IMG/VR virus record: IMGVR_UViG_3300028840_006907
Coordinates: 64,001 to 128,000 of that record
Length of the DNA: 64,000 nt
DNA from: a virus
Strand: one strand, 5' to 3'
Shown: positions 6,924 through 48,282 of the stretch, piece by piece
Layout: every line of letters starts with the position of its first letter
How positions within the stretch are numbered: the first letter of the stretch is position 1
Program-made: the position numbers and the translations under genes
Notes under the pieces: model-generated
Databases searched by the model: none
The model's input: the letters and a program-made list of their open reading frames with translations, nothing else
What the model was told of the DNA's origin: nothing

Positions 6924-7682
6924 TTGGAGACATCTGTGAAGTATAGCGTACTTGTACCCTACTATAAACGCCTAGGGCACCTACATAATACCTTTATTTC
7001 CTTTCTACACCATTATTCAGATAGAAATGATTATGAGGTTGTCATAGCAGAAGATTATAAAAATGTCCAGAATAAAAAAGACCATGACGGTCTATCAGAA
7101 ACCATTGAGAAATTCCGTGAAAAAATACCGATAATTCATTTAACTCTTTCTATGGAAACCTGGAATCCAGCTCATGGTTTTAATGAAGCTGCAAAGTGGG
7201 CTTCTGGTGAATATTTCGTTGTAACCAATCCAGAATGTTTCCATCAAGTGAACATACTGGCTGGACTCGATAAAGAATTTGAAGAAGACCCCAATGTCTA
7301 TGTTGTATGTGGTTGTATGAATTATGTCCGTTGTAATTTTTTTATTAAAAACTTTAATGATCTAAATGGAAAATTTCAGAGATGGTACCAACACTCAATA
7401 CATAGAGCAGCCCACTATCATTTCTGTTCAGCTATTTCAAAACAGAATTGGGTAAAAATAGGAGGATTCGATGAAGACTTTGCTATGGGTATAGCCTATG
7501 ATGATGTCGATTTTAAATTAAGCATTCAAAAAGCCAAGATACCCTTTCATATCCGGGATGACCTTCTTACTATACATATTGACCATGGTTCCTTCCCATC
7601 TCCTCCAAATGCTCAGAAATTAGTTAATCGAAATAGAATCACCTATCAAAGAAAATGGGAAGGAAGTAATGAATCTTACTAG
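6924..7682 (+). CDS. family-2 glycosyltransferase
   Basis: YSVLVPYYKR N-terminus, EDY and DDVDF acidic motifs. The start may be GTG at 6936, 5 nt after GGAGA. Confidence 0.7.
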   Translation: METSVKYSVLVPYYKRLGHLHNTFISFLHHYSDRNDYEVVIAEDYKNVQNKKDHDGLSETIEKFREKIPIIHLTLSMETWNPAHGFNEAAKWASGEYFVVTNPECFHQVNILAGLDKEFEEDPNVYVVCGCMNYVRCNFFIKNFNDLNGKFQRWYQHSIHRAAHYHFCSAISKQNWVKIGGFDEDFAMGIAYDDVDFKLSIQKAKIPFHIRDDLLTIHIDHGSFPSPPNAQKLVNRNRITYQRKWEGSNESY

Positions 7683-9762
7683 TTATACCGCAGCCGACAG
7701 TATCCCGATAAAATTGATTAAGAACTTTAAATTGTTAAAGTCCATGACAACAAAAGGAGTCATCTTACCAATCCATGTCCAGTTCATACCCACAAATAGA
7801 TGTAACATGAAATGTGGATTTTGTAGCTGTGCTGAAGATGACAGAAAAACAGAAATGTCCCTTAAAAATGCTAAGAAGATCATCAGAAAATTAAAAAAAC
7901 TCGGTACTCAATCCGTAACCATCACCGGAGGAGGAGAACCACTCCTTTATCCTCATCTCCAAGAATTGTTTTCTCTGTTTAAAGATGCCGGGATAAAAAT
8001 CGGTTTTGTTACCAATGGCCTCTTATTAGGTAAATGTACCTATGAAGATGTAACCTGGTGTCGGATTTCTAATTCTGATGAAAGAAAAATGGACATGGAC
8101 TATTATCACACAATAGCTTATGCTGTTGAAGATAACCCAAACGTGGACTGGGCCTTTAGTCATGTCGTTTCTCCAAAACCAAATATCTCCGAAATAAAAC
8201 GGATCATAGAATTTGCCAATCTCCATGATTTTACCCATGTCCGATTAGTAGCTGATCTATTGAATTATAAAGAAGTAGATTTAATGCAGTTAAAAATCAC
8301 TCTTCGAGATGAAAATGTCGATGATGATAAAGTCATCTATCAAAGTAGAAATACCCCGCTCAGAGGCGGAGACTGTTATATATGCTATCTTAAACCCATG
8401 ATAGGGGCTGACTGTAATGTGTACGCTTGTTGTTTAGAGGCTAATGAACCTGTATTAATCCAGAGAAATAACGAAAGGATGTATTTATCTATAAAGGATG
8501 TTGTTCCAGGGGATTATGCTTGTGAATATGGAAAGATTTTAAATGTGTTTCATAAAGAGGGTGAAGAAGGCTTGGAAATAGTTTTGCAAAATAATAGGAC
8601 TATTTATGTTTCGAAAGATCATCTTATGCTTAAATTGACAAACCCTGAAATTAGACATAAGAGAAAGAAGTTATTATCTGACTATGAATTAGATACAATA
8701 GAATCTTCTGAATTAAGAATTGGAGATTTACTTCCGGTCAAATATAAATATGATATTAGTGAAATAAAAGAAGATACTATATCTGAAGAAGAAGCAGAAT
8801 TAATAGGATATTATGTAGCTGAAGGTTGGTCCAATGAACGAACTTGTATAGTTGATAAAAAATATCCTACTAGAACTACCACTATAGGATTTATGCTAGG
8901 GAAAGAGTCAAGAGAATATATAAGAAGATTTGAAGAAATTTGTGATATTTTGAATCTAAATTTTTCTATGACTGAACGTAGAACTGGTATGCAGTATCAG
9001 ATAGGTGCACATAAACCCTACGATGACTTAATTGTACACTGTGGTAATAAAGCAGAATTAAAAAAGATCCCTCCTTTTATTTTAAACGGCTCTGATAAAA
9101 TAAAGTGGAAATTTATTCAAGGCTATTTTGGAGGTGACGGGAATTTTCAAACTCCTTCTAAAAGCTATGATGGTTTTAAAATGAGAATGAGTACTGTCAG
9201 TAGACAACTAGCTAATGATATAATTTATCTCTTTTGTACTTTAAATATTCATGCTTCTATGAGAGTTGAGAGACGTGAAGGAAAAATGATAATAGAAGGA
9301 AGAGAGGTAAATGCTAAAGATCGGTATCATATAAATATAGGGGGAGCCTATAATTTAGAAAAAGCCCCATTCCTAAATGTAATTCAAACAAAAGAAAGAA
9401 GTCCTAAAAGAGCCCTCGGTTTTTTGAAAGATGAGGATAAGGGCATTATGTTTGTACCAGTTAAAGAGATCAGAGAGAAAAAGTTAGGAAAATTAGTAGA
9501 CATTCAAGTGGAAGGTTCAAATAAATTTATATCTTCATTTGGTATAATAGTTCATAATTGTGGCGTCCAGTATGCTCTTAAAAAGCCTTCAAAGAATCTT
9601 CCTAAGAAACTGAGCCTAGGAAGTGCTTTTGATCTTGAGAAGATAATTGAGAACAGTAATAAGCCCCTGGACGGGAGCATGTGTTATCGATGCTATTATA
9701 GTAATTATAACAAGATACTAGGATCCATCCTGGATGATACCGATCATATGGAGTTTGTATGA
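7669..9762 (+). CDS. radical SAM enzyme interrupted by an intein
   Basis: CNMKCGFC (CxxxCxxC) and a GGGEPLL SAM motif. The extein is 321 aa after removing residues encoded by 8431-9558. Confidence 0.85.
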   Translation: MNLTSYTAADSIPIKLIKNFKLLKSMTTKGVILPIHVQFIPTNRCNMKCGFCSCAEDDRKTEMSLKNAKKIIRKLKKLGTQSVTITGGGEPLLYPHLQELFSLFKDAGIKIGFVTNGLLLGKCTYEDVTWCRISNSDERKMDMDYYHTIAYAVEDNPNVDWAFSHVVSPKPNISEIKRIIEFANLHDFTHVRLVADLLNYKEVDLMQLKITLRDENVDDDKVIYQSRNTPLRGGDCYICYLKPMIGADCNVYACCLEANEPVLIQRNNERMYLSIKDVVPGDYACEYGKILNVFHKEGEEGLEIVLQNNRTIYVSKDHLMLKLTNPEIRHKRKKLLSDYELDTIESSELRIGDLLPVKYKYDISEIKEDTISEEEAELIGYYVAEGWSNERTCIVDKKYPTRTTTIGFMLGKESREYIRRFEEICDILNLNFSMTERRTGMQYQIGAHKPYDDLIVHCGNKAELKKIPPFILNGSDKIKWKFIQGYFGGDGNFQTPSKSYDGFKMRMSTVSRQLANDIIYLFCTLNIHASMRVERREGKMIIEGREVNAKDRYHINIGGAYNLEKAPFLNVIQTKERSPKRALGFLKDEDKGIMFVPVKEIREKKLGKLVDIQVEGSNKFISSFGIIVHNCGVQYALKKPSKNLPKKLSLGSAFDLEKIIENSNKPLDGSMCYRCYYSNYNKILGSILDDTDHMEFV
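8431..9558 (+). mobile_element. LAGLIDADG-type intein (376 aa) inside the radical SAM gene
   Basis: N-terminal junction YAC|CLEANEPVL; block B SKDH. Two LAGLIDADG motifs (LIGYYVAEGW, FIQGYFGGDGN). C-terminal junction GIIVHN|C. Confidence 0.85.
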
Positions 9763-12025: not shown

Positions 12026-15018
12026 ACCCCGCTCAGATGCAGGGAAGAAGATTTCATTAAGAAGTTTTAGGAAGAGCCCCGCAGAGGAGGAACCTCGCAA
12101 GATGCGGGGAAAAGGAACTTCAGGCAATTGGCTGGGATTAGCCCCGCGAAGGTGCGGGGAAAACAGTTTCCATGAACTATATTAGGGAGAGCCCCGTTGA
12201 CACGGGGAAAAACCCGTCTTTACTTAGTGAGATCGAGGAAGGAACAGCCCCGTTGATACGGGGATAAAATAATATGACTTTTACGAATCCTCTAGGGACA
12301 GCCCTGCAGAGTGCAGGGAAAAGTAACGTCTGGGAATTGTTTAGGATTAGCCCCGCGAAGGTGCGGGGAAAGCCATAGATTTTATATTGACACAGGAAAA
12401 ACCCCGGTATAGTCCGGGGAAAAGTACGTAATCAAGATGTAAGAGGATTAGACCCGGCGAGTCCGGGAAAAGATTGGCCCAATCACTATTAAGTAGGGTG
12501 GGATAGCCCCGCAGAATGCAGGGAATAGATGCCTCACTTCATACCACTGCGTCAACCCCAGTAGAGTCCGGGGAACATGAGTGTAAATCTCTGTCGTAGG
12601 TTCAACCCCGGAGAGATCCAGGGGAAATGGGTACAACTTTGTGTACAAGGGGTAGCCCCGGAGAAATCCGAGGAAAATGAGTGTAAATCTGTGTTGAGGG
12701 TCCAGCCCCGCTCAGTGCAGGGAATATTAAGGGTCAAAACCGGTTGCCCCTGCGTCAACCCCGGTGAAGTCCGGGGAACATGAGTGTAAATCTCTGTGGT
12801 AGGATCAACCCCGCAGAGTGCAGGGAAAAATTGAACTTTTTAATCAACCCTGTAACAGCCCCGGAGTCAGTTTTGACAAGTCCGGGGGAATATCACTTCG
12901 TAAAGGAGTGGCTGTCAAGGGGGCAACCCCACAGAGATGTGGGGGAAAGTAAGCCAACGTTCCGGCATAGGCATAGCCCCTGAATTTACAGAGGGCAATT
13001 TTTCCAGTGTCCAGAAGAAGATGCAGGGAGAACCCCGGAAAGTCCAGGGGAAAATGTGTCACAGAACAACTCTTTGTGATCTCCAGGGTGAACCTCGCAG
13101 AGGTGCGGGGGAAAAGTGTCAATGAATACCAGTATGAGTCAGCCCCGGTATAGCCCGGGAATAATTACTTCTAGTCTGATAGAAGGTGCAACCCCGGGAA
13201 GTCCGGGGAAATCGGTCATAGCCATCTGGACCAGGAAGAACCCCGGTGAGATCCGGGGAAAAGGACGTTTAAATCCTGACATAGTAGCTAACTGAGGCGT
13301 AGCTCCGGTCGGGTCAGCCCTGCAGAGAGCAGGGAACAAACATAGGTAATAAATCGGCACGTGACAGCCCCGCAGAGAGGCGGGGATATATAGCGTGAGT
13401 TGCAGGGTAAGGTTCAACCCTTGTTTACCAAGGGAAAAATACCGGCAGATAAGAATTTAGGATGACCCCCGGTGAAAGTCCGGGGAAAATAATTAATACG
13501 CAAAACAGCAGGGCCAGTCCCGCGAGATGCAGGGAATGTTCAGCCAGTTTGTGTAATATTTCAGGAGACGGTGGTGCAACCCTGTCAAGGACAGGGATAT
13601 GCAACATCTGTGGCTCTACGAGGATCAGCCCCGGCAAGTCCGGGGAATTATCTTTTTATAAATGCCAAAAATAACAGTTGGGAGGGGCCAATTCCGCTGA
13701 TGCAGAAAGACATTTCATAATTAATATATTTATGGAAGAGCCCCGGTGAAATCCGGGGAAGTCAAGTAATTACAGCTCGCTGACCACTGGGGGTAGCCCC
13801 GGTAAGATCCGGGGAAAAGTTTGTTTTGAAACAAACGCTAGGAACAGCCCCGCTCAGGTGCGGGAGAATCACTGCATATTTGGTTAATGGCCCCCCTGAG
13901 TCAATCCCGCTCAGGTGCGGGGAAAATAAAGAGATAGACTAATTCAATATGCAGGAAGAACCCCGCTATATGCAGGAAAATTTAAAAAGTATGGATATCT
14001 CCTTGAGTCAACCCCGGAGATCCAGGGAAATGTAGGCACTCGTTGTCCTTTGTCGAAGTGTGAAGGGCAAACCTCGTTGATACGAGGAACAAATTTAGTT
14101 TTACTTTTGAATAAAAGTGGTCAAGCCCCGCTCAGGTGCAGGGAATAGATAAGTATACCGACGATAGCCAGGACAGCACCTGTGGTTTAGCCCTGCATGT
14201 GCAGGGAATAGTTGAGTTGAAGATTGAAGAAAAAGATAAAGTAGGGTCAGCTCTGCATGTGCAGAGAATAGCCTTTCTTCAAGCGTTGACTTGGGAGTAG
14301 GTGGGGATCAGCCCTGCACATGCAGGGAATAGAATGGTGAATCAAATTCCATTTTGTCAAAGAACGGCGACAGCCCTGCCAGTGCAGGGAATATGATTTT
14401 AACGATGGTAAAATTGGGAAGGGGTCAGCCCTGCACATGCAGGGAATAGTCGCTAGTTCAAATCCAATCGCCCCGACAGGATCAGCCCTGCATACGCAGG
14501 GAATAGAAAATACTGACGATAAACTAGCGATATGGGATCAGCCCTGCATACGCAGGGATATAGCTTGACGAATGGCCGTTTTAATGCCAGGAGTAACCCC
14601 GCTGCGAGGAATAGTCATTTCAAATATATAGGTAAAGCCCCGCGAAAGAGCGGGGGTATAATATGGCGGATTTTGTTCTATTGGTGGAATCCGGGCCATC
14701 CCCGTAGATTGACACGGGGAGATCTTTTAGAAATCTACCAAGGTGCCTTTCCGGAGTCATCCCCGTATATACGGGGGAGATTTCAATTCAGGGAATTTCG
14801 GTACAAAATTGGTCGGTTTATCCCCGTATACACGGGGAATATTGTTTCAATAGGGCATAGCAGATCTAGGATCGGGGAATCCCCGCAGGGGCGGGGAACA
14901 TCTCGGATTTATTAATCAAATTCAAACGTTTTTCGGGGAATCCCCGCAGGGGCGGGGAACATTGTTTTAAGAGGTGGTAGTTACCTCGTAGGGGAATCCC
15001 CGCAGGGGCGGGGAACAT
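12026..15018 (-). CRISPR. CRISPR array 1 with highly heterogeneous I-E-like repeats (~55 units)
   Basis: Three identical leader-proximal repeats, GGGGAATCCCCGCAGGGGCGGGGAACAT, start at 14874, 14935 and 14991. Read on the minus strand they are ATGTTCCCCGCCCCTGCGGGGATTCCCC, close to the type I-E consensus GTGTTCCCCGCGCCAGCGGGGATAAACCG. Hairpin units then continue every 49-62 bp down to ~12026. Confidence 0.9.
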
Positions 15019-15057: not shown

Positions 15058-15112
15058 ACCCTAATTTTCTACCAAAGAAAAATGTACTTGTCATGTATAA
15101 ATGTCAAAGAGC
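15058..15112 (-). promoter_or_regulatory. CRISPR leader, array 1
   Basis: accctaattttctaccaaa..gtacttg.c.t.tataaatgtcaaagagc is nearly identical to 22626-22677. The minus-strand reading contains TTGACA (15102-15107). Confidence 0.7.
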
Positions 15113-15127
15113 GTCAGAGAGAAATCC

Positions 15128-17359
15128 CTAGTGGATATACCGAATCCATTCATATCGAATTTTCATCGTTTTATAAGGAGCTTTTTTTCTCCCTGGAAAT
15201 ATGTTTCCTTCAAAAAGGAAAAATTTTTGAACAATTTTAAATTCAGCGTTTGATGGTGTCAAGCTCTGTGGTGCATAATCCGAACGCCAGTAATTATTAC
15301 AATATATAAATTTTTCTTCTCTGTCTTTTTGTATAAGGCCCGGAAACACCACTAAAACTATCTTTTCGTTTTCAATAACAATATCCCCTTGATAAATAGC
15401 TATTTCTAAATCCAGACCATCCTGCTCTATCACACGAGCATATTTCGAGAGTTTCCCATCAATCTTTACTTTAGCTTTAGGGGGAATATCAAAAGTTATC
15501 CATTCACCTTTTATGTCCTTAATGCTTTGAATAGGTTTTTTAACTGGAATTTCTTGAAAGACATGATCTTGGTATTCTGCTTTTTTAAGGATTTCTCCAT
15601 CTTTTTCCATATTAAGCAATAAAGCCTTTTCCATGATGTCTTTAAGTTCATAGAGATCTTTTTCAGTTAAGGGCTCTTTTGTTCCGAATACGATGGAACC
15701 TACATTCTCTAATCGAGCGATTTTATCAAAACCCTGTTTCCGGACAAAGTCTATGGTAATATGTTCTATTTTTCTATTTCTTGAAAGTCTTATGATTCTT
15801 ACAAATTCAGTTTTAATTGTGTCTTTGAAATTATCAAAACTTAAATGATCTTCTACGTAGGGATGATACAAATCCGCTATAAGACTTAATAAAATTTCTA
15901 TGTCTTCAGGTTTATCCTGTTTACGGTTGTAATCATAAGCTTTAATAATTTCTTGTCTCATTTCCATTAATATATCAGGAGCCATTATTTCACTTAAACT
16001 GGTAGATCCTTTTTTGTCCCGATAAAAGGGAGCTGTTGGAAGTAAGGGAATCCTGATAGCAGCACAAAGTTCTGACATTACAATTGAGGTTAAGAACAAA
16101 TTCAATCTGTCTGAATATAATGCCCTGATATTATTACGTTCTTCTTTTTTAATAGGTGGAACATAAATGTATAACCATATTTTATCTTTTTTAGGGTAAC
16201 ATCTGAAAATACGAAACATTATTTGAGAGAAGGTCACCTGACTCTTTCCATAACTTGTATTATGTAAAACAGCAGCAGGAGGCCAATCATACCCTTCATA
16301 GAATATTCTGCAAGATACGGCGACCCAGTATTTTTTATGATTACGTCTCAATAACTCTCTATTTTTTTTCTGAGTTTCCGGTGTGACTAAATCCAGTACT
16401 TTGGACGCAGGATATATTTCGTGAATAGCTTTTAAATATTTTTTAAGGGTTCCTTCCTCTCTGAACCGGTTCCCCATGTCAGGTAATATGACAATGTGTC
16501 TTTGATCTTTGTGCTCTTTCATATATCTAATGATCTGAGTAAGGGGATCTTTCCTATAGTGAGTGAAACGGAAATTGAATTCTTTGATTTTTATGATTGA
16601 GAGATAGTCATTTAATGGGATAACCCATTTTTCAAAATGATGTTTATAAGCATTGGGGACTATTTCTCCTCTGTCTGTGCGGTGGTAAGTAGCTGTATAA
16701 AAATTTACGTTACAAGTAGGTTCATGGATGGTACATACATCTCTGACAAAATCACCCAAATGAGTGGAATCTAGTGGGGTTGATTTTGAATGATGGCATT
16801 CATCTACATGTACAGTTAAATTTCTAAGGGCTTTCTTTTTTTCATAGTTGGTTAATTTTTCCCAGGTCATGACAAACCCTCTATGGGTAGCTGTAGCAAT
16901 AGGGCCTGTTATATGTTTTTCATTGTACGGGTATTTTCGAGGATCTGCTAAAAGGAATTCTTTAAGTCCTTTAATGGATTGAGGGTTTTCACTATTGAAT
17001 TTATGTTCTTTTGGTACTTCCCACAATCTTACCATACCTTTATATTTGATTTTTATTTGTCTATTTTGGGATCTGCAGAAATTTTCACCTATTTCTATTG
17101 TTGGTGCGATAAAGATATGTTTTCGAGTATTTTTAGATATTATGATTTCATCCAGGGATATGCATACTGCTAAAAAAGTTTTGCCGACTCCCCCTGGTGC
17201 ATCAAAGATCATGTATCTGAATTTTTTCCCATATTCTTTTGCATTGCATTGCCAGCCAGAGGGTATCATGATCCCTGATTCAAGTTTTTTATTATAGGTA
17301 CCAAGGTCAACCGGTTCTATTTTAATAGATTGCTGGAAAAGCGGTAATAGCTTTTTCAT
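15128..17359 (-). CDS. SF2 DExH helicase, Cas3'-like position, no HD nuclease domain
   Basis: Motif I APGGVGKT, motif II DECHH, motif III TAT, motif VI-like QIMFRIFR. Only ~55 aa precede the Walker A, so there is no room for an HD domain. Last gene of the cas operon. Confidence 0.75.
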   Translation of the reverse strand: MKKLLPLFQQSIKIEPVDLGTYNKKLESGIMIPSGWQCNAKEYGKKFRYMIFDAPGGVGKTFLAVCISLDEIIISKNTRKHIFIAPTIEIGENFCRSQNRQIKIKYKGMVRLWEVPKEHKFNSENPQSIKGLKEFLLADPRKYPYNEKHITGPIATATHRGFVMTWEKLTNYEKKKALRNLTVHVDECHHSKSTPLDSTHLGDFVRDVCTIHEPTCNVNFYTATYHRTDRGEIVPNAYKHHFEKWVIPLNDYLSIIKIKEFNFRFTHYRKDPLTQIIRYMKEHKDQRHIVILPDMGNRFREEGTLKKYLKAIHEIYPASKVLDLVTPETQKKNRELLRRNHKKYWVAVSCRIFYEGYDWPPAAVLHNTSYGKSQVTFSQIMFRIFRCYPKKDKIWLYIYVPPIKKEERNNIRALYSDRLNLFLTSIVMSELCAAIRIPLLPTAPFYRDKKGSTSLSEIMAPDILMEMRQEIIKAYDYNRKQDKPEDIEILLSLIADLYHPYVEDHLSFDNFKDTIKTEFVRIIRLSRNRKIEHITIDFVRKQGFDKIARLENVGSIVFGTKEPLTEKDLYELKDIMEKALLLNMEKDGEILKKAEYQDHVFQEIPVKKPIQSIKDIKGEWITFDIPPKAKVKIDGKLSKYARVIEQDGLDLEIAIYQGDIVIENEKIVLVVFPGLIQKDREEKFIYCNNYWRSDYAPQSLTPSNAEFKIVQKFFLFEGNIFPGRKKAPYKTMKIRYEWIRYIH

Positions 17360-17444
17360 TGTCTTTTTCCTCTCAAATAAGTCCTGGAAAGCCTTTTCAG
17401 GGGCTTTCCAGGATTAATGTACTGTGTATTCTATATCAACACTT

Positions 17445-17628: not shown

Positions 17629-18273
17629 TTAATAAGATTTATACGGTGCAATAAGCATCATACCACATCCGAAACCTTTACTCTTACCAATTCCATTATA
17701 AATAGTATTCACAAAAAGATTTTTATTGACTACCTGAAGGACTCCTCGTAAATCAATACTGAAAAAAGATACAACTTTACCATCTTTTTTTTTGAATTTA
17801 CAGAATTGAAAAGATTGAACGGAATGCTTTTGAATCATATTTTTAAAACCGTAACTTTGGCCACGTTTCTGAAGCCAATTCTTTGAGGATTCGTGAGCAA
17901 TGAAATTCCAATTATAGGGTTCATCAAGAACTTTCATTTCATTTGCCAGATCCGTCATGATTGAAACCTTTTTCCTGGTTTTCAATTTACAAACTTCGGC
18001 ATTGAGTCTGAGATCGTATTGAAGAAATATTCCAGATTTTAAATTATTTAAATCGAATACTTTTGTTTGTGTAGTGTATTCGTCCTCTGGAGGATTTGGT
18101 TTCTTTTTTGATATGATATAAAGTTCACCATTATAGAGATAATAAAGGAAATCTCTTACCCTGTTAGATCTTTGATCACCAAAAAATTCCCAGACTTTTT
18201 GATGAAGCTCATATATACCTTCGGTGGGAGAATATCTTCTCAAGCTGTCACTGTAAATTTTACTCAGAAACAT
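17629..18273 (-). CDS. cas6e: Cas6e (CasE) crRNA endoribonuclease
   Basis: MFLSKIY...YELHQKVWEFF...RDFLY and C-terminal GIGKSKGFGCGMMLIAP parallel E. coli CasE (MYLSKV...LHQGLW...GIGPAKSMGCGLLSLAP). AGGAGG lies 6 nt upstream of the ATG at 18273. Confidence 0.85.
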   Translation of the reverse strand: MFLSKIYSDSLRRYSPTEGIYELHQKVWEFFGDQRSNRVRDFLYYLYNGELYIISKKKPNPPEDEYTTQTKVFDLNNLKSGIFLQYDLRLNAEVCKLKTRKKVSIMTDLANEMKVLDEPYNWNFIAHESSKNWLQKRGQSYGFKNMIQKHSVQSFQFCKFKKKDGKVVSFFSIDLRGVLQVVNKNLFVNTIYNGIGKSKGFGCGMMLIAPYKSY

Positions 18274-18910
18274 TCGATACCTCCTTCCATCCCATATACT
18301 CAATTCGGGATCGGTATTGTTTGGGACCGGTTACCTGATCAAAACGTTGATTGCTTTTTACTATTTTGATACTGGTATCGGTACCTTCCCAAAATATTCG
18401 GTTCTTTTCACGCCCTTTAAGACTACCATTAAGAAATTCAGGAAGAGAGTACTGTTCAAACGCCTCTGAGAGGCTCTCAGCCTTAACGATCTTAGGATCG
18501 GGTGGTATGTCATAGGAACAGCATTTCCTTCCAAGAAAGGGGGTATAGATGGGCCTATTAAGGGCTTCCATTATTTTCTTCAAAGTATAGGGACAGTTTT
18601 CATTCTCCCATATACATACGGTAAAGATGGCATTGACTAGGTAAAATCTATTCGAGACAATTCCTGGTCCGACTCTGACAATATGGAAATCTTTTAGAAT
18701 AGTACCAGGATTATCTTCCCTACAGGCAAATCCTAGTTGGGCAATCTGAGTTAATTCTTTCACCATTTCTCTTGAGACTCCAAGAGAAGCAGCGATTAAC
18801 CCGCTTACGCCAGATTTGGTAGGGTGATCATCTGTCTTTCGGGTATTACCCTGAAGGGGGAGACCCCAGGCGGATAGAGTACCCGAAAGAAGGAATAATA
18901 AATAATTCAT
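18260..18910 (-). CDS. cas5e: Cas5e (CasD)
   Basis: MNYLLFLLSGTLSAWGLP...TRKT..HPTKSGVSGLIAASLGVSRE parallels the Cas5e N-terminus (LRLAGPMQAWG...PTRSGLLGLLGACLGI). Confidence 0.85.
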   Translation of the reverse strand: MNYLLFLLSGTLSAWGLPLQGNTRKTDDHPTKSGVSGLIAASLGVSREMVKELTQIAQLGFACREDNPGTILKDFHIVRVGPGIVSNRFYLVNAIFTVCIWENENCPYTLKKIMEALNRPIYTPFLGRKCCSYDIPPDPKIVKAESLSEAFEQYSLPEFLNGSLKGREKNRIFWEGTDTSIKIVKSNQRFDQVTGPKQYRSRIEYMGWKEVSNVSE

Positions 18911-22210: not shown

Positions 22211-22236
22211 ATTTCCTCCGTTTACACGGAGGAAAT
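22211..22236. promoter_or_regulatory. perfect 10-bp inverted repeat between array 2 and the cas promoter
   Basis: atttcctccg tttaca cggaggaaat. Could terminate the array-2 transcript or act as an operator. Confidence 0.45.
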
Positions 22237-22266: not shown

Positions 22267-22586
22267 CAGCCCCGGTAAAGTCCAGGGAAATAAAAATTAG
22301 TGATAATTCGGGAATCAGCAGGAGGAGAGCATCAGCCCTGCGTATGCGGGGAATAGTGTTATCGTCTTACAGGATGTAAAGCAGAGACAGCCCCGCGTAT
22401 GCGGGGAATAGAAATTAATACATCTCATAAAATCTAGCATCAGCCCCGCGTATGCGGGGAATAGTTATTTATCTATACTTCCTACAACTCCCATAACGCA
22501 TCAGCCCCGCGTATGCGGGGAATAGCTCGTTGGTTTTCCCATTCCACAAAAGTTCAACGCATCAGCCCCGCGTATGCGGGGAATAG
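22267..22586 (-). CRISPR. CRISPR array 2 (6 repeats)
   Basis: GCATCAGCCCCGCGTATGCGGGGAATAG occurs at 22437, 22498 and 22559, with variants at 22329 and 22384 and a divergent unit at 22267. The two leader-proximal spacers are 33 nt. Minus-strand reading is CTATTCCCCGCATACGCGGGGCTGATGC. Confidence 0.9.
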
Positions 22587-22625: not shown

Positions 22626-22677
22626 ACCCTAATTTTCTACCAAAAAAAGTACTTGCCGTTTATAAATGTCAAAGAGC
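22626..22677 (-). promoter_or_regulatory. CRISPR leader, array 2
   Basis: Near-identical copy of 15058-15112, including TTGACA on the minus strand (22667-22672). Confidence 0.7.
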
Positions 22678-34425: not shown

Positions 34426-34502
34426 TGGTACCCCAATCAGGACTCTAACCTGAAATCTTTGGCTCCGGAAACCAACGCTTTATACAATTAAGCTATTGGG
34501 GC
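34426..34502 (-). tRNA. tRNA-Arg(CCG)
   Basis: Hand-folded cloverleaf: acceptor GCCCCAA/TTGGGGT, anticodon loop TTCCGGA, T-loop TTAGAGT, CCA encoded. Confidence 0.85.
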
Positions 34503-34511
34503 ATTATAAGA

Positions 34512-34586
34512 TGGCGGTGCGTAAGGGAATCGAACCCTTGCCAGGAGATCGACAGTCTCCGGTCCTAACCACTGAACGAACGCACC
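34512..34586 (-). tRNA. tRNA-Asp(GTC)
   Basis: Acceptor GGTGCGT/ACGCACC, anticodon loop CTGTCGA, T-loop TTCGATT, CCA encoded. Confidence 0.9.
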
Positions 34587-34782
34587 GTATTTTTATTAAT
34601 CAATTTTTTTATTTCCGATAAAAAGACCGCAGTCGCATTGCCGAGCCATTTTCGTTTTATTCTTTATTACAATGCCTATTGCTTTAATAGGCTTTTTACA
34701 AGTGTTGCAAATATTTTGCTGTGTCTTTTTGTCATGCTGTTTCACTGCTGTTTTAGCCATTACTTGTACTCCTTAAATGTTA

Positions 34783-34856
34783 TGGCAGGGACGGTCAGAT
34801 TCGAACTGACATCGCCGGTTTTGGAGACCGGGTGCTTGACCGTTAGCGACGCCCCT
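34783..34856 (-). tRNA. tRNA-Trp(CCA)
   Basis: Acceptor AGGGGCG/CGTCCCT, anticodon loop CTCCAAA, T-loop TTCGAAT, CCA encoded. Confidence 0.85.
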
Positions 34857-35062
34857 GTATTGACAAATTTTTCATGATTTGAACCATTCACTACAACCTT
34901 CGGCTAGTTCTAATAAATGAACACAAGGTTTTGTTTCTTTTGCCAGAACACAGCCACACACTGTACAAATTACCACAGCAGGTTTCAAATCATGTTTCTC
35001 AATTTCAGCGAATGCTTTCACTATATCATTCACTATATCATTCATTTTTTCTCCGAATTATC

Positions 35063-35135
35063 TGGGCGCAGACGGACTTGAACCGCCCACGAATGGCTTA
35101 TGAGACCACTACTCTACCGACTGAGTTATACGCCC
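35063..35135 (-). tRNA. tRNA-Met/Ile2(CAT)
   Basis: Acceptor GGGCGTA/TGCGCCC, anticodon loop CTCATAA, T-loop TTCAAGT. Confidence 0.85.
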
Positions 35136-35143
35136 TTGACTTA

Positions 35144-35221
35144 TGGCACACCCGGCACGATTTGAACGTGCGACTTCTTCGTTCGTGGCGAAGATCTCTA
35201 TCCGGACTGAGTTACGGGTGC
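35144..35221 (-). tRNA. tRNA-Arg(ACG)
   Basis: Acceptor GCACCCG/CGGGTGT, anticodon loop CCACGAA (note C rather than U at position 33), CCA encoded. Confidence 0.75.
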
Positions 35222-35227
35222 GTATTT

Positions 35228-35728
35228 TTATAAAAAAGTTTTATACGTTTTTTTATTAATGATATATGATAATGTTGATTTTGCTGATTTATATTCCTTT
35301 GCTAATTTATTTAAACTTTCTCCATTTTTATTTCTGTTAATTATAGATTCTATCTCTTTTTTTGTGAATTTTCTTAATTTATACGCAGCTTTAACTGCTT
35401 GCTCTTTTCTTTCTTTTTCAGGTATATCAAATGAATTCTCTGATCTTGTACCAATTGATATATTAGAATCATTGAAATTTAATCTATTTCTATCTAAGTG
35501 TCTAGTCTCAATCCCTTCTTCAAAAACTTTATCCCCAAATAAAAAGTATGCTTTTAATTTATGTACTTTTAAATTTTTAATCTTTTTGTTTACATAGATA
35601 TTTATGGTAGGGTAACCTTTTGAATAATGGAATCTTAAAGGTTTTCCCATTGGCCCAATAACTTCATTTTTATCATTAAAATGATATCCTTTTTTTACAG
35701 CTATTTTTAAGACATCATTATTTTTCAT
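35228..35728 (-). CDS. HNH (HNH_3/NUMOD-type) homing endonuclease
   Basis: VHKLKAYFLFGD...ETRHLDRNRLNFNDSNISIGTRSEN plus a C-terminal HTH-like tail. Sits inside the tRNA cluster. Confidence 0.7.
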   Translation of the reverse strand: MKNNDVLKIAVKKGYHFNDKNEVIGPMGKPLRFHYSKGYPTINIYVNKKIKNLKVHKLKAYFLFGDKVFEEGIETRHLDRNRLNFNDSNISIGTRSENSFDIPEKERKEQAVKAAYKLRKFTKKEIESIINRNKNGESLNKLAKEYKSAKSTLSYIINKKTYKTFL

Positions 35729-35748
35729 ATATTAATTTTTCTTTCTAA

Positions 35749-35821
35749 TAGGGGTACGGGGAGTCGAACCCCGGTCGTGGGAGAGAAAATCCCATATCCT
35801 AAGCCATTAGAAGATACCCCC
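35749..35821 (-). tRNA. tRNA-Glu(TTC)
   Basis: Acceptor GGGGGTA/TACCCCT, anticodon loop TTTTCTC, T-loop TTCGACT. Confidence 0.85.
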
Positions 35822-35866
35822 ATAAAATAAAAAAGCTCCTGTCTGGTTCTCACCCGACAGGAGCTT
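35822..35866 (-). terminator. rho-independent terminator
   Basis: 11-bp stem aagctcctgtc/gacaggagctt, followed on the minus strand by TTTTATTTT. Confidence 0.7.
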
Positions 35867-47872: not shown

Positions 47873-48282
47873 TGGAGGTGAGGAGAGTTGAACTCCTGTC
47901 CGCGAAGGTATCTTGAGTAAACCTCTACATGTTTAGTCTATGGTTTAAATCTTATTCATAATCACGTTCACAGACAAACTTAATTAAGAACCAGTCTCTA
48001 GTCTCATTCATTGGTCAAGACTCCTCAATGAACCAGAACCCGTTTGGCTATCCGGAATTAACAGGGTTCAGTTAAAACCGGATTTGTCGTTTTTTGTTTA
48101 AACGACGGCTTCTTCTGCTTGATGAATAGCAGCAAGGTTAAGTGCTGAAAACATCGCACAGAAGTTAACTGTATTAGTTTTTTCAGTTATTATTGAAATC
48201 GGCTTTTTTACGAGGCCAACCGATTAACCTCGACATGCAGTTTACATTTCAACTCATCACGTCGAAAACCAAGTACACCCCC
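47873..48282 (-). ncRNA. ssrA: tmRNA
   Basis: 5' end GGGGGTGTACTTGGTTTTCGACG. 3' end AGGAGTTCAACTCTCCTCACCTCCA (T-arm plus acceptor). Acceptor GGGGGTG/CACCTCC has a G3-U70 pair (Ala identity). CCA is not encoded. Confidence 0.85.

Follow-up and report, generated by a model that had tools for sequence, protein, structure and literature searches.

Two repeat arrays flank a cas8e-cas7e-cas5e-cas6e operon and a gene for an XPB-like helicase in the window, by which we mean the whole 64-kb stretch of DNA that was analysed (Table 1). The source contig belongs to a huge phage of ~390-470 kb. The matches to Cas8e, Cas7e, Cas5e, and Cas6e (Pfam, NCBIfam, and PADLOC; E 1e-26 to 1e-55) place the larger array beside type I-E cas genes and support the earlier note on this DNA, which had read it as a CRISPR-type array. 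The same note had likened the repeat hairpins to a Cas6e substrate, and the phage Cas6e keeps both the catalytic His (aligned to E. coli CasE His20) and the glycine-rich loop. The cas8e product is ~150 aa longer than usual; no separate cas11 (Cse2) gene was found in the operon, and the Cas8e tail showed no similarity to a viral Cas11. The helicase has XPB/Rad25 as its nearest solved (PDB) relatives, and its family always adjoins a cas8e-7-5-6e operon of the present type. It showed no BLASTP similarity to a viral I-E Cas3, domain and structure-relative searches revealed no recognisable nuclease domain in it, and no Cas3 homolog was detected by tblastn in the 64-kb window. The lack of Cas1-Cas2 remarked on earlier held within ±10 kb (precomputed Pfam), in the 64-kb window (tblastn with viral I-E Cas1 and Cas2), and at the loci L003, L004, L006, and L013-L015. 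Judged by its gene content, the system in the window would therefore consist of Cas8e, Cas7e, Cas5e, Cas6e, and a dedicated XPB-like SF2 helicase, without Cas1-Cas2 and without an HD-domain Cas3.

Array 2 has 6-7 units overall (22586→22211), the most distal hairpin being either a unit or a terminator. Both arrays are preceded by a leader with a boxA-like element; the E. coli boxA consensus is GCTCTTTAACAA. The leader motif G(C/T)TCTTTGA(C/A)AT is invariant in 7 of 7 leaders from six loci. BoxA sits ~77 bp upstream of I-E arrays (Stringer 2020, PMC7665894), and its role in long I-E arrays has been described there. The best sigma-70-like promoter match lies upstream of the array 1 leader, within the 3' end of the helicase gene. 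Copies of the Cys-rich ORF at the other end of array 1 also follow the arrays of the related loci L013 and L003, and we regard this conserved ORF as a candidate accessory gene.

Table 1. Coordinates of the arrays, leaders, genes, and conserved guides in the window.
Feature	Position	Strand	Remarks
Cys-rich ORF, ~121 aa	11618..11983	-	directly downstream of array 1; no Pfam match
Array 1	12027..15018	-	55 hairpin units parsed; frame search, covariation, repeat diversity
Repeats A01-A03			identical I-E-like repeats, ATGTTCCCCGCCCCTGCGGGGATTCCCC
Repeats A09-A15			repeat block CTATTCCCTGC-nnnn-GCAGGGCTGAyCC
Guide A44	12574..12597	-	ACG ACA GAG ATT TAC ACT CAT GTT = TTEIYTHV
Guide A42	12674..12697	-	TCA ACA CAG ATT TAC ACT CAT TTT = STQIYTHF
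Guide A40	12777..12800	-	ACC ACA GAG ATT TAC ACT CAT GTT = TTEIYTHV
boxA-like element, array 1 leader	15101..15112	-	GCTCTTTGACAT; ~83-94 nt upstream of first repeat
SF2 helicase, 743 aa	15128..17359	-	DECH box; without HD domain, without Cas3 C-terminal domain
Sigma-70-like promoter match, best	15234..15262	-	TTGACA-17-TAAAAT, 11/12; consensus match only
cas6e, 224-aa ORF	17629..18303	-	catalytic His in YELHQ and C-terminal G-rich loop conserved
cas5e, 216 aa	18260..18910	-	profile matches
cas7e, 361 aa	18934..20019	-	profile matches
cas8e-like gene, 647 aa	20046..21989	-	Cse1 match = residues 1-375; ~270-aa C-terminal remainder
B07 or terminator	22211..22236	-	11-bp hairpin ATTTCCTCCGTGTAAACGGAGGAAAT, distal end of array 2; listed as terminator-like
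Array 2	22270..22586	-	upstream of cas8e; 4 identical repeats (CTATTCCCCGCATACGCGGGGCTGATG), then 2 variants, B05 and B06
boxA-like element, array 2 leader	22666..22677	-	GCTCTTTGACAT

Array 1 is a ~3-kb CRISPR-like array whose repeats differ nearly throughout and share the same hairpin fold. We parsed 55 units on the minus strand (15018→12027), in line with the ~55 repeats first estimated, and numbered them from A01 at 15018, which adjoins the leader, to A55 at 12027, the distal end. All 55 keep the type I-E repeat frame, in which a GC-rich stem of 6-7 bp is closed by a short loop and accompanied by a 5' handle of 8 nt. When the repeat is taken as 5-nt flank, hairpin, and 8-nt handle, 54 of the 55 sequences are distinct, with 50 distinct hairpins in array 1, which bears out the earlier statement that almost every repeat is different; the 6-bp stems of both arrays pooled form 25 different haplotypes, and every stem pair that had been listed was found in the array. 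The longest exact run common to two repeats has a median of 6 nt, and common runs of ≥20 nt are present in only 6 of 1485 repeat pairs, confined to A01-A03, A09-A10, and A49/A53. From A16 to A55 nearly all repeats are mutually different, and the order of the distal repeats has neither a gradient nor an adjacency effect (permutation p ≈ 0.5), in keeping with the description of the loop families as interleaved, not graded. CRISPR arrays are recognised by identical or near-identical direct repeats, which array 1 does not have, and by regular near-constant spacing; the spacing of array 1 is regular but falls into three linker classes, and most spacers are unique, one family having 3 copies. With 55 units, it far exceeds the median of six repeats for phage arrays (PMC7162821). 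The array is also GC-richer than its surroundings, as had been noticed (48-50% versus ~33%), and this is because of the hairpins, since spacer GC is 38% compared to 34% in the remaining window. The locus is 100% identical in two independent assemblies from different samples and is therefore no assembly artefact. The two-unit blocks A40-41, A42-43, and A44-45 are duplicated and diverged and carry G·U intermediates, suggesting that the array may have grown by duplication.

Compensatory covariation of the hairpins, claimed in the earlier note, was confirmed on a loop-less alignment. Standard pairs occupy 97.5% of 360 stem cells compared to 84.5 ± 1.1% in shuffles (n = 500), changes on both sides are present in 6 of 6 stem pairs, and 46 double-change cells were counted against 12.1 ± 2.6 in shuffles, a number that 0 of 500 shuffles reached. 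The unit boundaries were curated with the pairing known, a concern that is addressed by a slid-register control, in which pairing dropped to just 37-61%, and by a test anchored only on CCC...GGG and free of ascertainment, in which the inner three pairs were all Watson-Crick in 31 of 55 cases within the arrays versus 1 of 36 outside. Only 2.5% of the stem cells are unpaired; stem pairs 1-3 and 5 are ≥90% C-G/G-C, and pairs 4 and 6 are free to vary. In the 8-nt handle, T2 and the CC at positions 6-7 agree with the E. coli handle ATAAACCG. The frame TCCC-N8-14-GGGNT gave 66 matches in the 64-kb window versus 9.2 ± 3.2 expected; those within the arrays are all on the minus strand, and those outside are 8 only, which is chance level, and are not complementary. 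The units are confined to the two arrays in the 64 kb, and the dispersed REP-like family that the earlier note had set against its own reading was not found there. As to the molecule under selection, G·U pairs favour the minus strand 18:4 (p = 0.004), or 10:3 when counted by distinct haplotypes (p = 0.09 only), and this strand bias points to a minus-strand RNA as the target of selection; selection on an RNA hairpin had been proposed earlier.

The fall in unit period from the leader to the distal end is real, and it is better stated as a hairpin-to-hairpin linker, which in array 1 measures ~45 nt on the leader side and shortens to exactly 32-33 nt among the distal units. Three linker classes (~45, 39, and 32-33 nt) were distinguished. 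The window has 15 linkers of 32 nt, 6 of 33, 13 of 38-40, and 11 of 44-46; L004 has 15 of 45, 7 of 39-40, and 6 of 32-34, and L006 has 5 of 45 and 7 of 32-35. The 32-nt class recurs in four loci, and we know of no such class in canonical I-E arrays. Across 125 pooled linkers there is a periodicity at 6-6.5 nt (R ≈ 0.5 versus 0.1 null), although the main classes lie 13 nt apart, not 12, and a reading in Cas7 steps is approximate. When I-E crRNAs are shortened, Cascade assembles with fewer Cas7 subunits, and interference is kept by spacers >20 nt (PMC5159557).

Heterogeneous arrays are likewise present in four related loci (L003, L004, L006, and L013), and non-identical repeats are a trait of this clade. 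Repeats are uniform at the viral I-E loci L008-L010, which are more distantly related and carry a canonical Cas3-HD; two of them, L009 and L010, encode Cas1 as well. L013 is syntenic with the window locus and has 4-5 linkers in common with it at 75-87% identity, with different hairpins beside them (for example, CCCCCA/TGGGGG versus CCTCGG/CCGGGG). Since the same guides stand beside different hairpins, the hairpins must have changed in place. No spacers common to the window and L004 were found above background. Stem families are interleaved in L004, and in L006 a run of 5 identical canonical repeats and one near-identical repeat lies between variant units. Searches of 185,579 species genomes and of IMG/VR returned no array built on the A01 repeat.

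One guide family is conserved, with 3 copies in the window and members in L003, L006, and L013, always directly 3' of the 8-nt handle. It reads TTEIYTHV in translation, which is the motif with the catalytic tyrosine in tyrosine recombinases, and its variable sites fall at 7 of 8 third codon positions versus 4 of 16 others (p = 0.008). In 11 viral contigs, a 17-mer of the guide falls within the sequence for a C-terminal LGHSN(V/I)KTTEIYTHVS in Phage_integrase ORFs of ~270 aa; these matches are in sense orientation and directly follow AAA or AAG. The integrase matches extend to up to 22 of 24 positions, the best having 2 mismatches, one of them in the seed, and co-occurrence with the present phage is not known for any matched contig. 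The 17-mer alone is not specific, because 13 of its 29 matches lie in an unrelated ORF family (GTTEIYTIV). A target was found for this one guide family only, and conservation of guides is seen for few units, not library-wide. For three spacers of canonical length IMG/VR gave no match, 50,697 phage genomes gave none for the whole array, and the remaining 64-kb window gave none for any spacer.

Together, these results suggest that the locus is probably an inherited library of Cas6e-processed guides, belonging to a phage-borne type I-E derivative, and neither an adaptive array nor a set of decoys. Minus-strand transcription of each array, through a leader with a boxA-like antitermination element, would yield one long precursor, which Cas6e would cleave at the 3' base of each hairpin. 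The product, an 8-nt 5' handle (xTxxxCCx) followed by the guide and a 3' hairpin, would nucleate Cascade. Indirect indications of such transcription and processing are the promoter-like site, the boxA-like leaders, the strand bias of the G·U pairs, and the constrained linkers. What Cas6e and Cascade are predicted to recognise is the form of the hairpin, its three basal C-G pairs and one more G-C pair, and a small number of bases at its flanks; the remaining repeat positions would be free to change. With no Cas1-Cas2 copying a master repeat there would be no return to uniformity and, because nothing restores it, the repeats have probably diverged singly, via G·U intermediates and compensatory change. 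The conserved element is at least one guide family, together with a few further linkers common to the syntenic relative. This family would aim at the DNA for the catalytic-tyrosine box of tyrosine recombinases (K followed by TTEIYTHV), its variants tracking synonymous and conservative variation of the target. Linkers of ~45, 39, and 32-33 nt would build Cascades with roughly 6, 5, and 4 Cas7.

The non-identity of the repeats might itself have been positively selected, as an adaptation rather than a by-product of absent homogenisation, if identical 28-nt repeats are soon collapsed by the recombinogenic replication of a jumbo phage that has no means to re-acquire spacers. The short common runs (just 1 distal pair exceeds 17 nt), the persistence of a 55-unit array, identical in two samples, where phage arrays have a median of six (PMC7162821), and the heterogeneity of every locus in the clade are consistent with such selection, which the earlier note had proposed as selection against recombinational spacer loss. 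Adjacent repeats are, however, as alike as random pairs, identical repeats are tolerated on the leader side (A01-A03, B01-B04, and 5 in L006), and drift in the absence of homogenisation would lead to the same outcome; we consider selection for non-identity a serious but doubtful possibility. The scarcity of common runs likely benefits the array by making it a poor substrate for recombinational deletion, and it was possibly selected for this. The earlier note had also offered piecemeal capture, by which the array would be a composite of many host or phage I-E arrays and the covariation would be natural I-E repeat diversity. We find this unlikely, although the leader-end blocks A01-A03, A04-A06, and A09-A15 (the last resembling array 2), the interleaved stem families of L004, and the L006 block of 5 identical and one near-identical repeat amid variants would fit it. 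Capture from hosts is at odds with the finding of the A01 repeat in 0 of 185,579 species genomes and with the change of hairpins in place beside the orthologous L013 guides. In addition, an A01 repeat array is absent from IMG/VR too, clade-specific flank and handle features are common to all units, the 32-nt linkers recurring in four loci are foreign to the canonical I-E arrays we know of, and G·U intermediates distinguish the duplicated two-unit blocks from one another.

It is still less probable that the array is a decoy or sponge library (an RNA anti-CRISPR), as had been suggested by analogy, in which repeat mimics titrate host Cas6e and Cascade and the linkers hold no guide information. 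I-E-like hairpins as diverse as these could suit many host systems, and the phage has no recognisable interference nuclease, but the phage has a complete set of Cascade genes of its own, flanked by arrays with matching leaders, and its linker lengths are sharply constrained. A guide family that is conserved across the clade, varies with codon periodicity, and matches real integrase genes argues against decoys as well, and so do the conserved 5' handle positions, which would be needless for decoys acting on Cas6e alone. We give the least credence, and very little, to an explanation without selection on RNA, whether DNA-level maintenance through template-switch correction of quasipalindromes or an old decaying array. 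Palindromes are correctable by intrastrand templating, and most of the stems are perfect Watson-Crick. Such correction would nevertheless give no strand bias of G·U pairs (18 minus versus 4 plus), and it sits poorly with the strictly uniform orientation of the units, the conservation of unpaired flank and handle bases, the constrained linker lengths, and the conserved guides; under neutral decay, stems would be lost as often as kept, compared to the 2.5% of cells that are unpaired.

Canonical type I-E systems (E. coli K-12 and Salmonella) resemble the phage system in their Cas8e, Cas7e, Cas5e, and Cas6e, in a repeat made of 5 nt, a 16-18-nt GC hairpin, and an 8-nt handle with T2 and CC at 6-7, and in the 61-bp period seen in the leader-proximal units of the phage; a boxA-like element in the leader is shared with Salmonella. 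Unlike them, the phage system has 54 of 55 repeats different, two extra linker classes 6 and 13 nt shorter, and, within the window, no Cas1-Cas2, HD-Cas3, or separate Cas11, the XPB-like helicase replacing Cas3; it is encoded by a huge phage and has at least one guide conserved across divergent genomes. The available text of Al-Shayeb et al. 2020 (PMC7162821) describes huge-phage type I variants that are likewise phage-encoded, without Cas1/Cas2, and with a helicase replacing Cas3, but its example, a variant of type I-C, has no Cas6, phage arrays in general are described in it as compact (median six repeats), and that text makes no mention of covarying repeat heterogeneity. Type IV-A systems, which are plasmid-borne, also combine a class 1 effector with a non-Cas3 helicase (DinG), have no adaptation module and no nuclease, and reside on mobile elements, where they are used in element-versus-element conflict. 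They differ in that their own effectors are of the Csf family and, to our knowledge, their arrays have uniform repeats. Type IV-A spacers are acquired in trans via host I-E Cas1-Cas2, according to the available text of 10.1101/2023.06.23.546257. The type I-F system of Vibrio phage ICP1, directed against the PLE satellite, is similarly a CRISPR-Cas of a lytic phage against a host mobile element, as far as the available text of its source goes (PMC6452262). ICP1, however, has Cas1, Cas2-3, uniform repeats, and active spacer acquisition, and the present phage appears to target a motif conserved among recombinases rather than any single element. Cr-like RNAs (CreA and repeat-like elements; PMC9458426, 10.1101/2023.03.03.530964) have degenerate repeats that are still Cascade-bound in those systems, and conserved inherited guides that are shorter or partly matched; they are one or two ectopic units regulating a toxin or the cas operon, in contrast to a 55-unit array. 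RNA anti-CRISPRs and solitary phage repeat units are also phage-encoded repeat-like hairpins, but they stand alone, without cognate cas genes or constrained guides, whereas the phage array has a Cascade operon adjoining. In ELSA-type synthetic non-repetitive arrays, many guides are placed in one locus with deliberately non-identical scaffolds that avoid recombination; these are engineered Cas9 sgRNA cassettes, in contrast to a natural array with presumed Cas6e processing.

Beyond the earlier note, what is new here is the second array, the boxA-like leader, the linker classes, the conserved guide with its target, and the recognition of a clade trait. A broader interpretation of the inherited guide library, which we put forward tentatively, is that of an innate, inherited CRISPR in a huge-phage clade with its logic reversed, having conserved guides, free repeats, three guide sizes, and an XPB-like helicase in place of Cas3. 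On this innate interpretation, the guides may be vertically transmitted and directed to those codons that are best conserved in widespread genes of mobile elements, the tyrosine-recombinase box being the first example. The guides may begin in frame after a Lys-codon PAM, which would place the flipped-out 6th positions on wobble bases; the repeats may be bound by hairpin shape only and perhaps selected to differ, and the three guide sizes may build 4-, 5-, and 6-Cas7 Cascades.

At least one conserved guide beside variable repeats is the reverse of the usual CRISPR arrangement of constant repeats and variable spacers. If processed as proposed, the array is a natural mutational scan of what Cas6e and Cascade need in a repeat, namely C-G at the three basal pairs, G-C at one inner pair, a T at two flanking sites, and three positions of the handle, and this bears on how multiplex guide arrays for type I tools could be made non-repetitive and stable against recombination. 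The 32-33-nt linkers would, if this holds, represent natural reduced-stoichiometry Cascades, so far laboratory-made only, and the XPB-like helicase partner would be an uncharacterised interference or silencing module. The guide to the tyrosine-recombinase catalytic box suggests that a lytic jumbo phage fights the integrases of satellites, prophages, or rival phages. If our interpretation is true, a CRISPR array needs no Cas1-Cas2 to persist as an inherited library, with its guides conserved and its repeats drifting, and the boundary between adaptive CRISPR and innate RNA-guided systems would be blurred.

Array 1 comprises 55 hairpin units (A01, leader-proximal, to A55) and array 2 comprises 6 to 7 units (B01-B07), all built on a common frame in the RNA-sense strand (nTTTT / CCCnGn-loop-nCnGGG / yTnnnCCn) that has the same anatomy as the E. 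coli type I-E repeat (5 nt, hairpin, 8-nt handle), with T2 and C6C7 as in AUAAACCG. The earlier note had described about 55 repeats, nearly all different, and this is what parsing recovered: of the 55 units, 54 have a distinct repeat and 50 a distinct hairpin, the two arrays together hold 25 stem haplotypes, and the longest run common to two repeats has a median of 6 nt. Units A01-A03 share one sequence (ATGTTCCCCGCCCCTGCGGGGATTCCCC) and a period of 61 bp, A09-A15 make up a block similar to the array 2 repeat, and from A16 onward almost all units differ. Population variation was uninformative, since the sequences L001 and L002 do not differ from the window. Unit A24 has the stem TTCTGC/GCGGAA. 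Unit A39 has a 17-nt loop with a nested mini-hairpin (GTCAaaacTGAC), and a similar two-tier unit is present in the related locus L013.

The window belongs to a phage contig of ~389-470 kb (JGI 3300017963 Ga0180437_10000019; SRR6963591 assembles to the same sequence) and has a GC content of ~33%, with 21 tRNA genes and a tmRNA, which are typical huge-phage translation-related cargo. The helicase lacks an HD domain and a Cas3 C-terminal domain, shows no BLASTP similarity to viral I-E Cas3 and no direct PDB sequence match, and by family profile is closest to archaeal XPB/Rad25 (E = 6e-5). Homologs of Cas1, Cas2, and Cas3 were found neither within ±10 kb nor, by tblastn, across the 64-kb window. 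A reading of the Cas8e tail as Cas11 found no support, BLASTP similarity to a viral Cas11 being absent. A strong terminator-like hairpin after cas6e suggests that the helicase gene and array 1 are transcribed apart from cas8e-cas6e. In three loci the array is followed immediately by a Cys-rich ORF (…FQVFQAHCIERNFLYAGEPGHFNVECRLGPNRCNHTVCPIWNS…; 55-64% identity, no Pfam match), a possible accessory gene.

Features of the locus and of related loci (window coordinates unless another locus is named)
Feature	Position	Strand	Remark
Array 2	22586-22211	minus	upstream of cas8e
Cas8e-like protein, 647 aa	21989-20046	minus	first in operon
Cas7e	20019-18934	minus	operon
Cas5e	18910-18260	minus	operon
Cas6e	18303-17629	minus	operon; catalytic His and glycine-rich loop kept
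Terminator-like hairpin, 12 bp	17382-17413	minus	between cas6e and helicase gene
SF2 helicase, 743 aa	17359-15128	minus	operon
Sigma-70-like site, 11/12	15262-15234	minus	further upstream of array 1 leader
Match to A40	15254-15272	minus	overlaps -35 box of best promoter-like site
Array 1	15018-12027	minus	downstream of helicase
A31 linker	13259-13317		the single 59-nt linker
Site matched by A31 linker	L038 1303-1320		intergenic
Unit A39	12859-12887
Two-tier unit	L013 3417-3444		similar to A39
Units A49, A53	12351-12368, 12142-12159		only distal units with identical repeat
Cys-rich ORF, ~121 aa	11618-11983; L013 3752-4123; L003 8658-8876	minus in window	conserved 3′ of array
Radical-SAM gene with weak intein and LAGLIDADG matches; three tRNA clusters; tmRNA	7669-9762, 34426-35822, 47873-48282, 53795-63431
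Extra genes, ~201 and ~110 aa	L014 9396-10004 and 12289-12618; L015 9399-10004 and 12307-12639		candidates
Solitary repeat hairpin	L012 2560-2590		IMGVR_UViG_3300027739_000025

Compensatory covariation, as claimed from the sequence at the outset, was assessed with all 62 units of both arrays in a loop-less alignment, together with regex and anchor tests; a covariance model was dropped since MAFFT placed the gaps at the 5′ end instead of in the loops. Standard pairs filled 97.5% of 360 stem cells compared to 84.5 ± 1.1% after shuffling, two-sided changes were seen in all six stem pairs, and double-change cells numbered 46 against 12.1 ± 2.6 in shuffled data (reached by 0 of 500), confirming the claim. 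Sliding the 3′ arm by 1-3 columns gave only 37-61% pairing. Stem pairs 1-3 and 5 are at least 90% constant, and pairs 4 and 6 vary freely (CG, UA, UG, GC). Because unit boundaries had been drawn with the pairing known, we added an anchor-only test (C-run…G-run); here 31 of the 55 anchor pairs within the arrays had Watson-Crick bases at all three inner pairs, compared with 1 of the 36 outside them. Non-Watson-Crick transition pairs were G·U on the minus strand in 18 cases and on the plus strand in 4 (p = 0.004 by cells; 10:3, p = 0.09, by distinct haplotypes).

Selection on an RNA, as the earlier note had held, and specifically on a minus-strand one, is favored by the G·U bias, the uniform orientation, and the conservation of unpaired flanks; the same three features speak against both the upkeep of palindromes by DNA-level correction and the neutral decay of an old array. 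That the distal units might instead belong to a dispersed REP-like family, which the same note had raised against its own reading, is contradicted by the distribution of the frame TCCC-N8-14-GGGNT: it occurs 66 times in the window (9.2 expected), and all but 8 of these matches are inside the arrays, the 8 being non-complementary and no more than a chance-level number. Piecemeal capture of units from different host arrays did not hold up either. A search of 185,579 species genomes for the leader-proximal repeat recovered no host array (one irrelevant Actinomyces match), and the 4-5 linkers common to L013 and the window, 75-87% identical, lie beside hairpins that differ by paired changes (CCCCCA/TGGGGG versus CCTCGG/CCGGGG; CCCTG/CAGGG versus CCCTTG/CAAGGG); the two helicases have 59% protein identity and the gene downstream of the array 68% DNA identity. 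Within array 1, A40-41, A42-43, and A44-45 are two-unit blocks, diverged duplicates with G·U intermediates. Together, the L013 linkers and these duplicates indicate that hairpins change in place and guides are kept. A library of repeat decoys, also proposed initially, is likewise contradicted by specific results. Lack of repeat homology would protect a long array from recombinational loss, as a selected cause of the diversity or as a side effect; adjacent repeats are no more different than random pairs.

Ungapped comparison of the spacers with three related loci (L004, L003, L006) gave nothing above the null. Gapped BLAST including the handles recovered one linker common to the window (A40, A42, A44), L003, L006, and L013, in which the conserved guide always starts directly after the 8-nt handle. 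Variation affects 7 of its 8 third codon positions and 4 of the 16 other positions (p = 0.008), a codon periodicity that in a non-coding guide is expected if the copies were taken from, or kept matched to, alleles of a protein-coding target. In tyrosine recombinases, TTEIYTHV and STQIYTH form box II, the motif with the catalytic tyrosine. When IMG/VR was scanned for exact copies of a 17-mer from L003, there were 29 matches, of which 11 encode the C-terminal LGHSN(V/I)KTTEIYTHVS of ~270-aa ORFs on the coding strand, 13 fall in an unrelated ORF family with GTTEIYTIV (contigs L020, L025, L029-L033, L035-L037, L039, L041, L043), and 5 look random. One ~270-aa ORF checked against Pfam contained Phage_integrase and a SAM-like N domain (E = 2e-39). 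The integrase matches are preceded by a Lys codon, AAA or AAG, resembling the E. coli I-E PAM AAG, and A40 and A44 agree with the integrase of L027 at 22 of 24 positions, both mismatches being at wobble positions. Being sense in sequence, the crRNA is predicted to base-pair with template-strand DNA rather than with the mRNA.

Guide copies with codon-like variation and the predicted target
Copy	Sequence	Translation
A40	ACC ACA GAG ATT TAC ACT CAT GTT	TTEIYTHV
A44	ACG ACA GAG ATT TAC ACT CAT GTT	TTEIYTHV
L003	ACA ACA GAA ATT TAC ACA CAT GTT	TTEIYTHV
A42	TCA ACA CAG ATT TAC ACT CAT TTT	STQIYTHF
L013	ACA ACG CAA ATA TAC ACT CAT TAT	TTQIYTHY
L006	ACA ACA GAA ATA TAT ACC CAA ATT	TTEIYTQI
Predicted target of TTEIYTHV guide	AAG/AAA + ACNACNGARATTTACACNCATGTT
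A49	AAA CAA TTC CCA GAC GTT ACT TTT	KQFPDVTF
A53	AGC CAA TTG CCT GAA GTT CCT TTT	SQLPEVPF

A candidate target was found for this guide family only, in contigs that are not known to meet this phage, and the conservation is seen in a handful of units. In the 13 GTTEIYTIV contigs the 17-mer lies inside a 238-aa ORF (…AAASGTTEIYTIVFDS…) with no Pfam match; A45, which adjoins A44, has a 15-nt exact match in the same ORF, ~380 nt away on the opposite strand (E = 0.003, 279-kb search space), which could be chance or a second target. The guides of A49 and A53 differ in a codon-like manner, hinting at a second family that tracks a protein motif. Spacers B01, A04, and A13, searched against IMG/VR with N at every 6th position, had no matches, and no spacer had a significant match in the remainder of the window. 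A38 (LTATPLRSD), which resembles helicase motif III, is not supported as a guide to it, the codon-degenerate scan yielding 12 chance-like matches in short ORFs. Self-regulation of array 1 by A40, which matches a site ahead of the array at 15 of 19 positions (first 9 nt exact), was also set aside; chance alone would give 0.77 such matches, and the L003, L006, and L013 sequence examined has no counterpart.

What is constrained is the linker, taken as the distance between consecutive hairpins (3′ end to 5′ end), rather than the period. Window linkers are of 32 nt (15), 33 nt (6), 38-40 nt (13), and 44-46 nt (11); those of L004 are of 45 nt (15), 39-40 nt (7), and 32-34 nt (6), and those of L006 of 45 nt (5) and 32-35 nt (7). 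Pooled (n = 125), they have modes at 32-33, 38-39, and 45 nt and a 6-6.5 nt periodicity (R ≈ 0.5 versus 0.1 when jittered). The 45-nt linker equals the canonical 8-nt handle, 32-nt spacer, and 5-nt flank. In E. coli, Cascade with shortened crRNAs has fewer Cas7 subunits, and spacers >20 nt still interfere (PMC5159557); read in this light, the three classes may correspond to crRNAs for about 6, 5, and 4 Cas7 subunits, an approximate reading, as the main step measures 13 nt instead of 12. The single 59-nt linker, that of A31, has an 18-nt exact match to L038, an unrelated 57-kb viral contig (p ~0.01-0.02 after multiple testing). All seven leaders carry an invariant G(C/T)TCTTTGA(C/A)AT, located 83-94 nt ahead of the first repeat, which agrees at 10 of 12 positions with the E. 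coli boxA consensus, GCTCTTTAACAA. In Salmonella I-E arrays, a boxA placed ~77 bp upstream shields long arrays from termination by Rho (PMC7665894). The boxA-like leader and the putative promoter support transcription through the whole array, short of proof.

Homologs were rare in a collection of 5.8 billion proteins, six for Cas7 and eight for the helicase, and every Cas7 or helicase contig extending past the cas genes and helicase has the same kind of array. Comparison with related phages, which the earlier note had envisaged, found heterogeneous arrays in four loci. L004 has at least 42 units, most of them TCCCAC/GTGGGR with TCCYGC types and TCCTAC/GTAGGA interleaved; L003 has AT-richer stems (CCCTGT/ACAGGG, CCCTCT/AGAGGG, CTCCTT/AAGGAG); L006 has canonical repeats, five identical and one near-identical, with variant units on the flanks; and L013 has ~12 units, syntenic with the window, between the helicase and the same sulfotransferase gene. 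The helicase family always adjoins this cas8e-7-5-6e operon. Repeat variation is milder in L015, a more distant member. L014 and L015 carry an extra gene between cas6e and the helicase (~201 aa) and another after the helicase (~110 aa), both without a Pfam match and candidates for the missing Cas11 or for a nuclease. The locus had no match among INPHARED phages by megablast or blastn, a metagenome scan gave one short contig (L007), and a Cas7 pattern search of IMG/VR gave none; an alignment search there returned only distant I-E loci, used as comparators. These three loci (L008-L010; Cas7 identity 25-33%) have canonical HD-Cas3 and uniform repeats with a 60-61-bp period, and two of them also have Cas1, with or without Cas2-DnaQ. 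A link between loss of the adaptation module and loss of repeat uniformity fits these three comparators, which are not proof. On L012, an unrelated high-GC viral contig, the search with the repeat also turned up a solitary I-E-like hairpin (cattCCCCGCgtctGCGGGGattccccc), which could be a lone repeat unit or only a terminator.

Al-Shayeb et al. 2020 (PMC7162821) report that Cas1 and Cas2 are usually missing from the CRISPR systems of huge phages, that in a type I variant a helicase replaces Cas3, and that phage arrays are short, with a median of six repeats. The cas architecture itself fits this known huge-phage pattern; the 55-unit non-identical array, the length classes, and the conserved recombinase-directed guide are new relative to it. 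No earlier account of a phage I-E array with heterogeneous, covarying repeats came to light, an absence of evidence only, given incomplete literature coverage. The best-supported reading of the sequences is that the locus is an inherited, Cas6e-processed guide library of an I-E-derived system without adaptation and Cas3. With no Cas1-Cas2 copying a master repeat, repeats would drift apart through compensatory change, constrained solely at positions read by protein. The identical 61-bp units at leader ends suggest that units are still being added, possibly via host I-E Cas1-Cas2 in trans, as is reported of type IV-A3 (10.1101/2023.06.23.546257). At its target, the effector may act by binding and silencing, by helicase-driven removal, or by recruitment of another nuclease.
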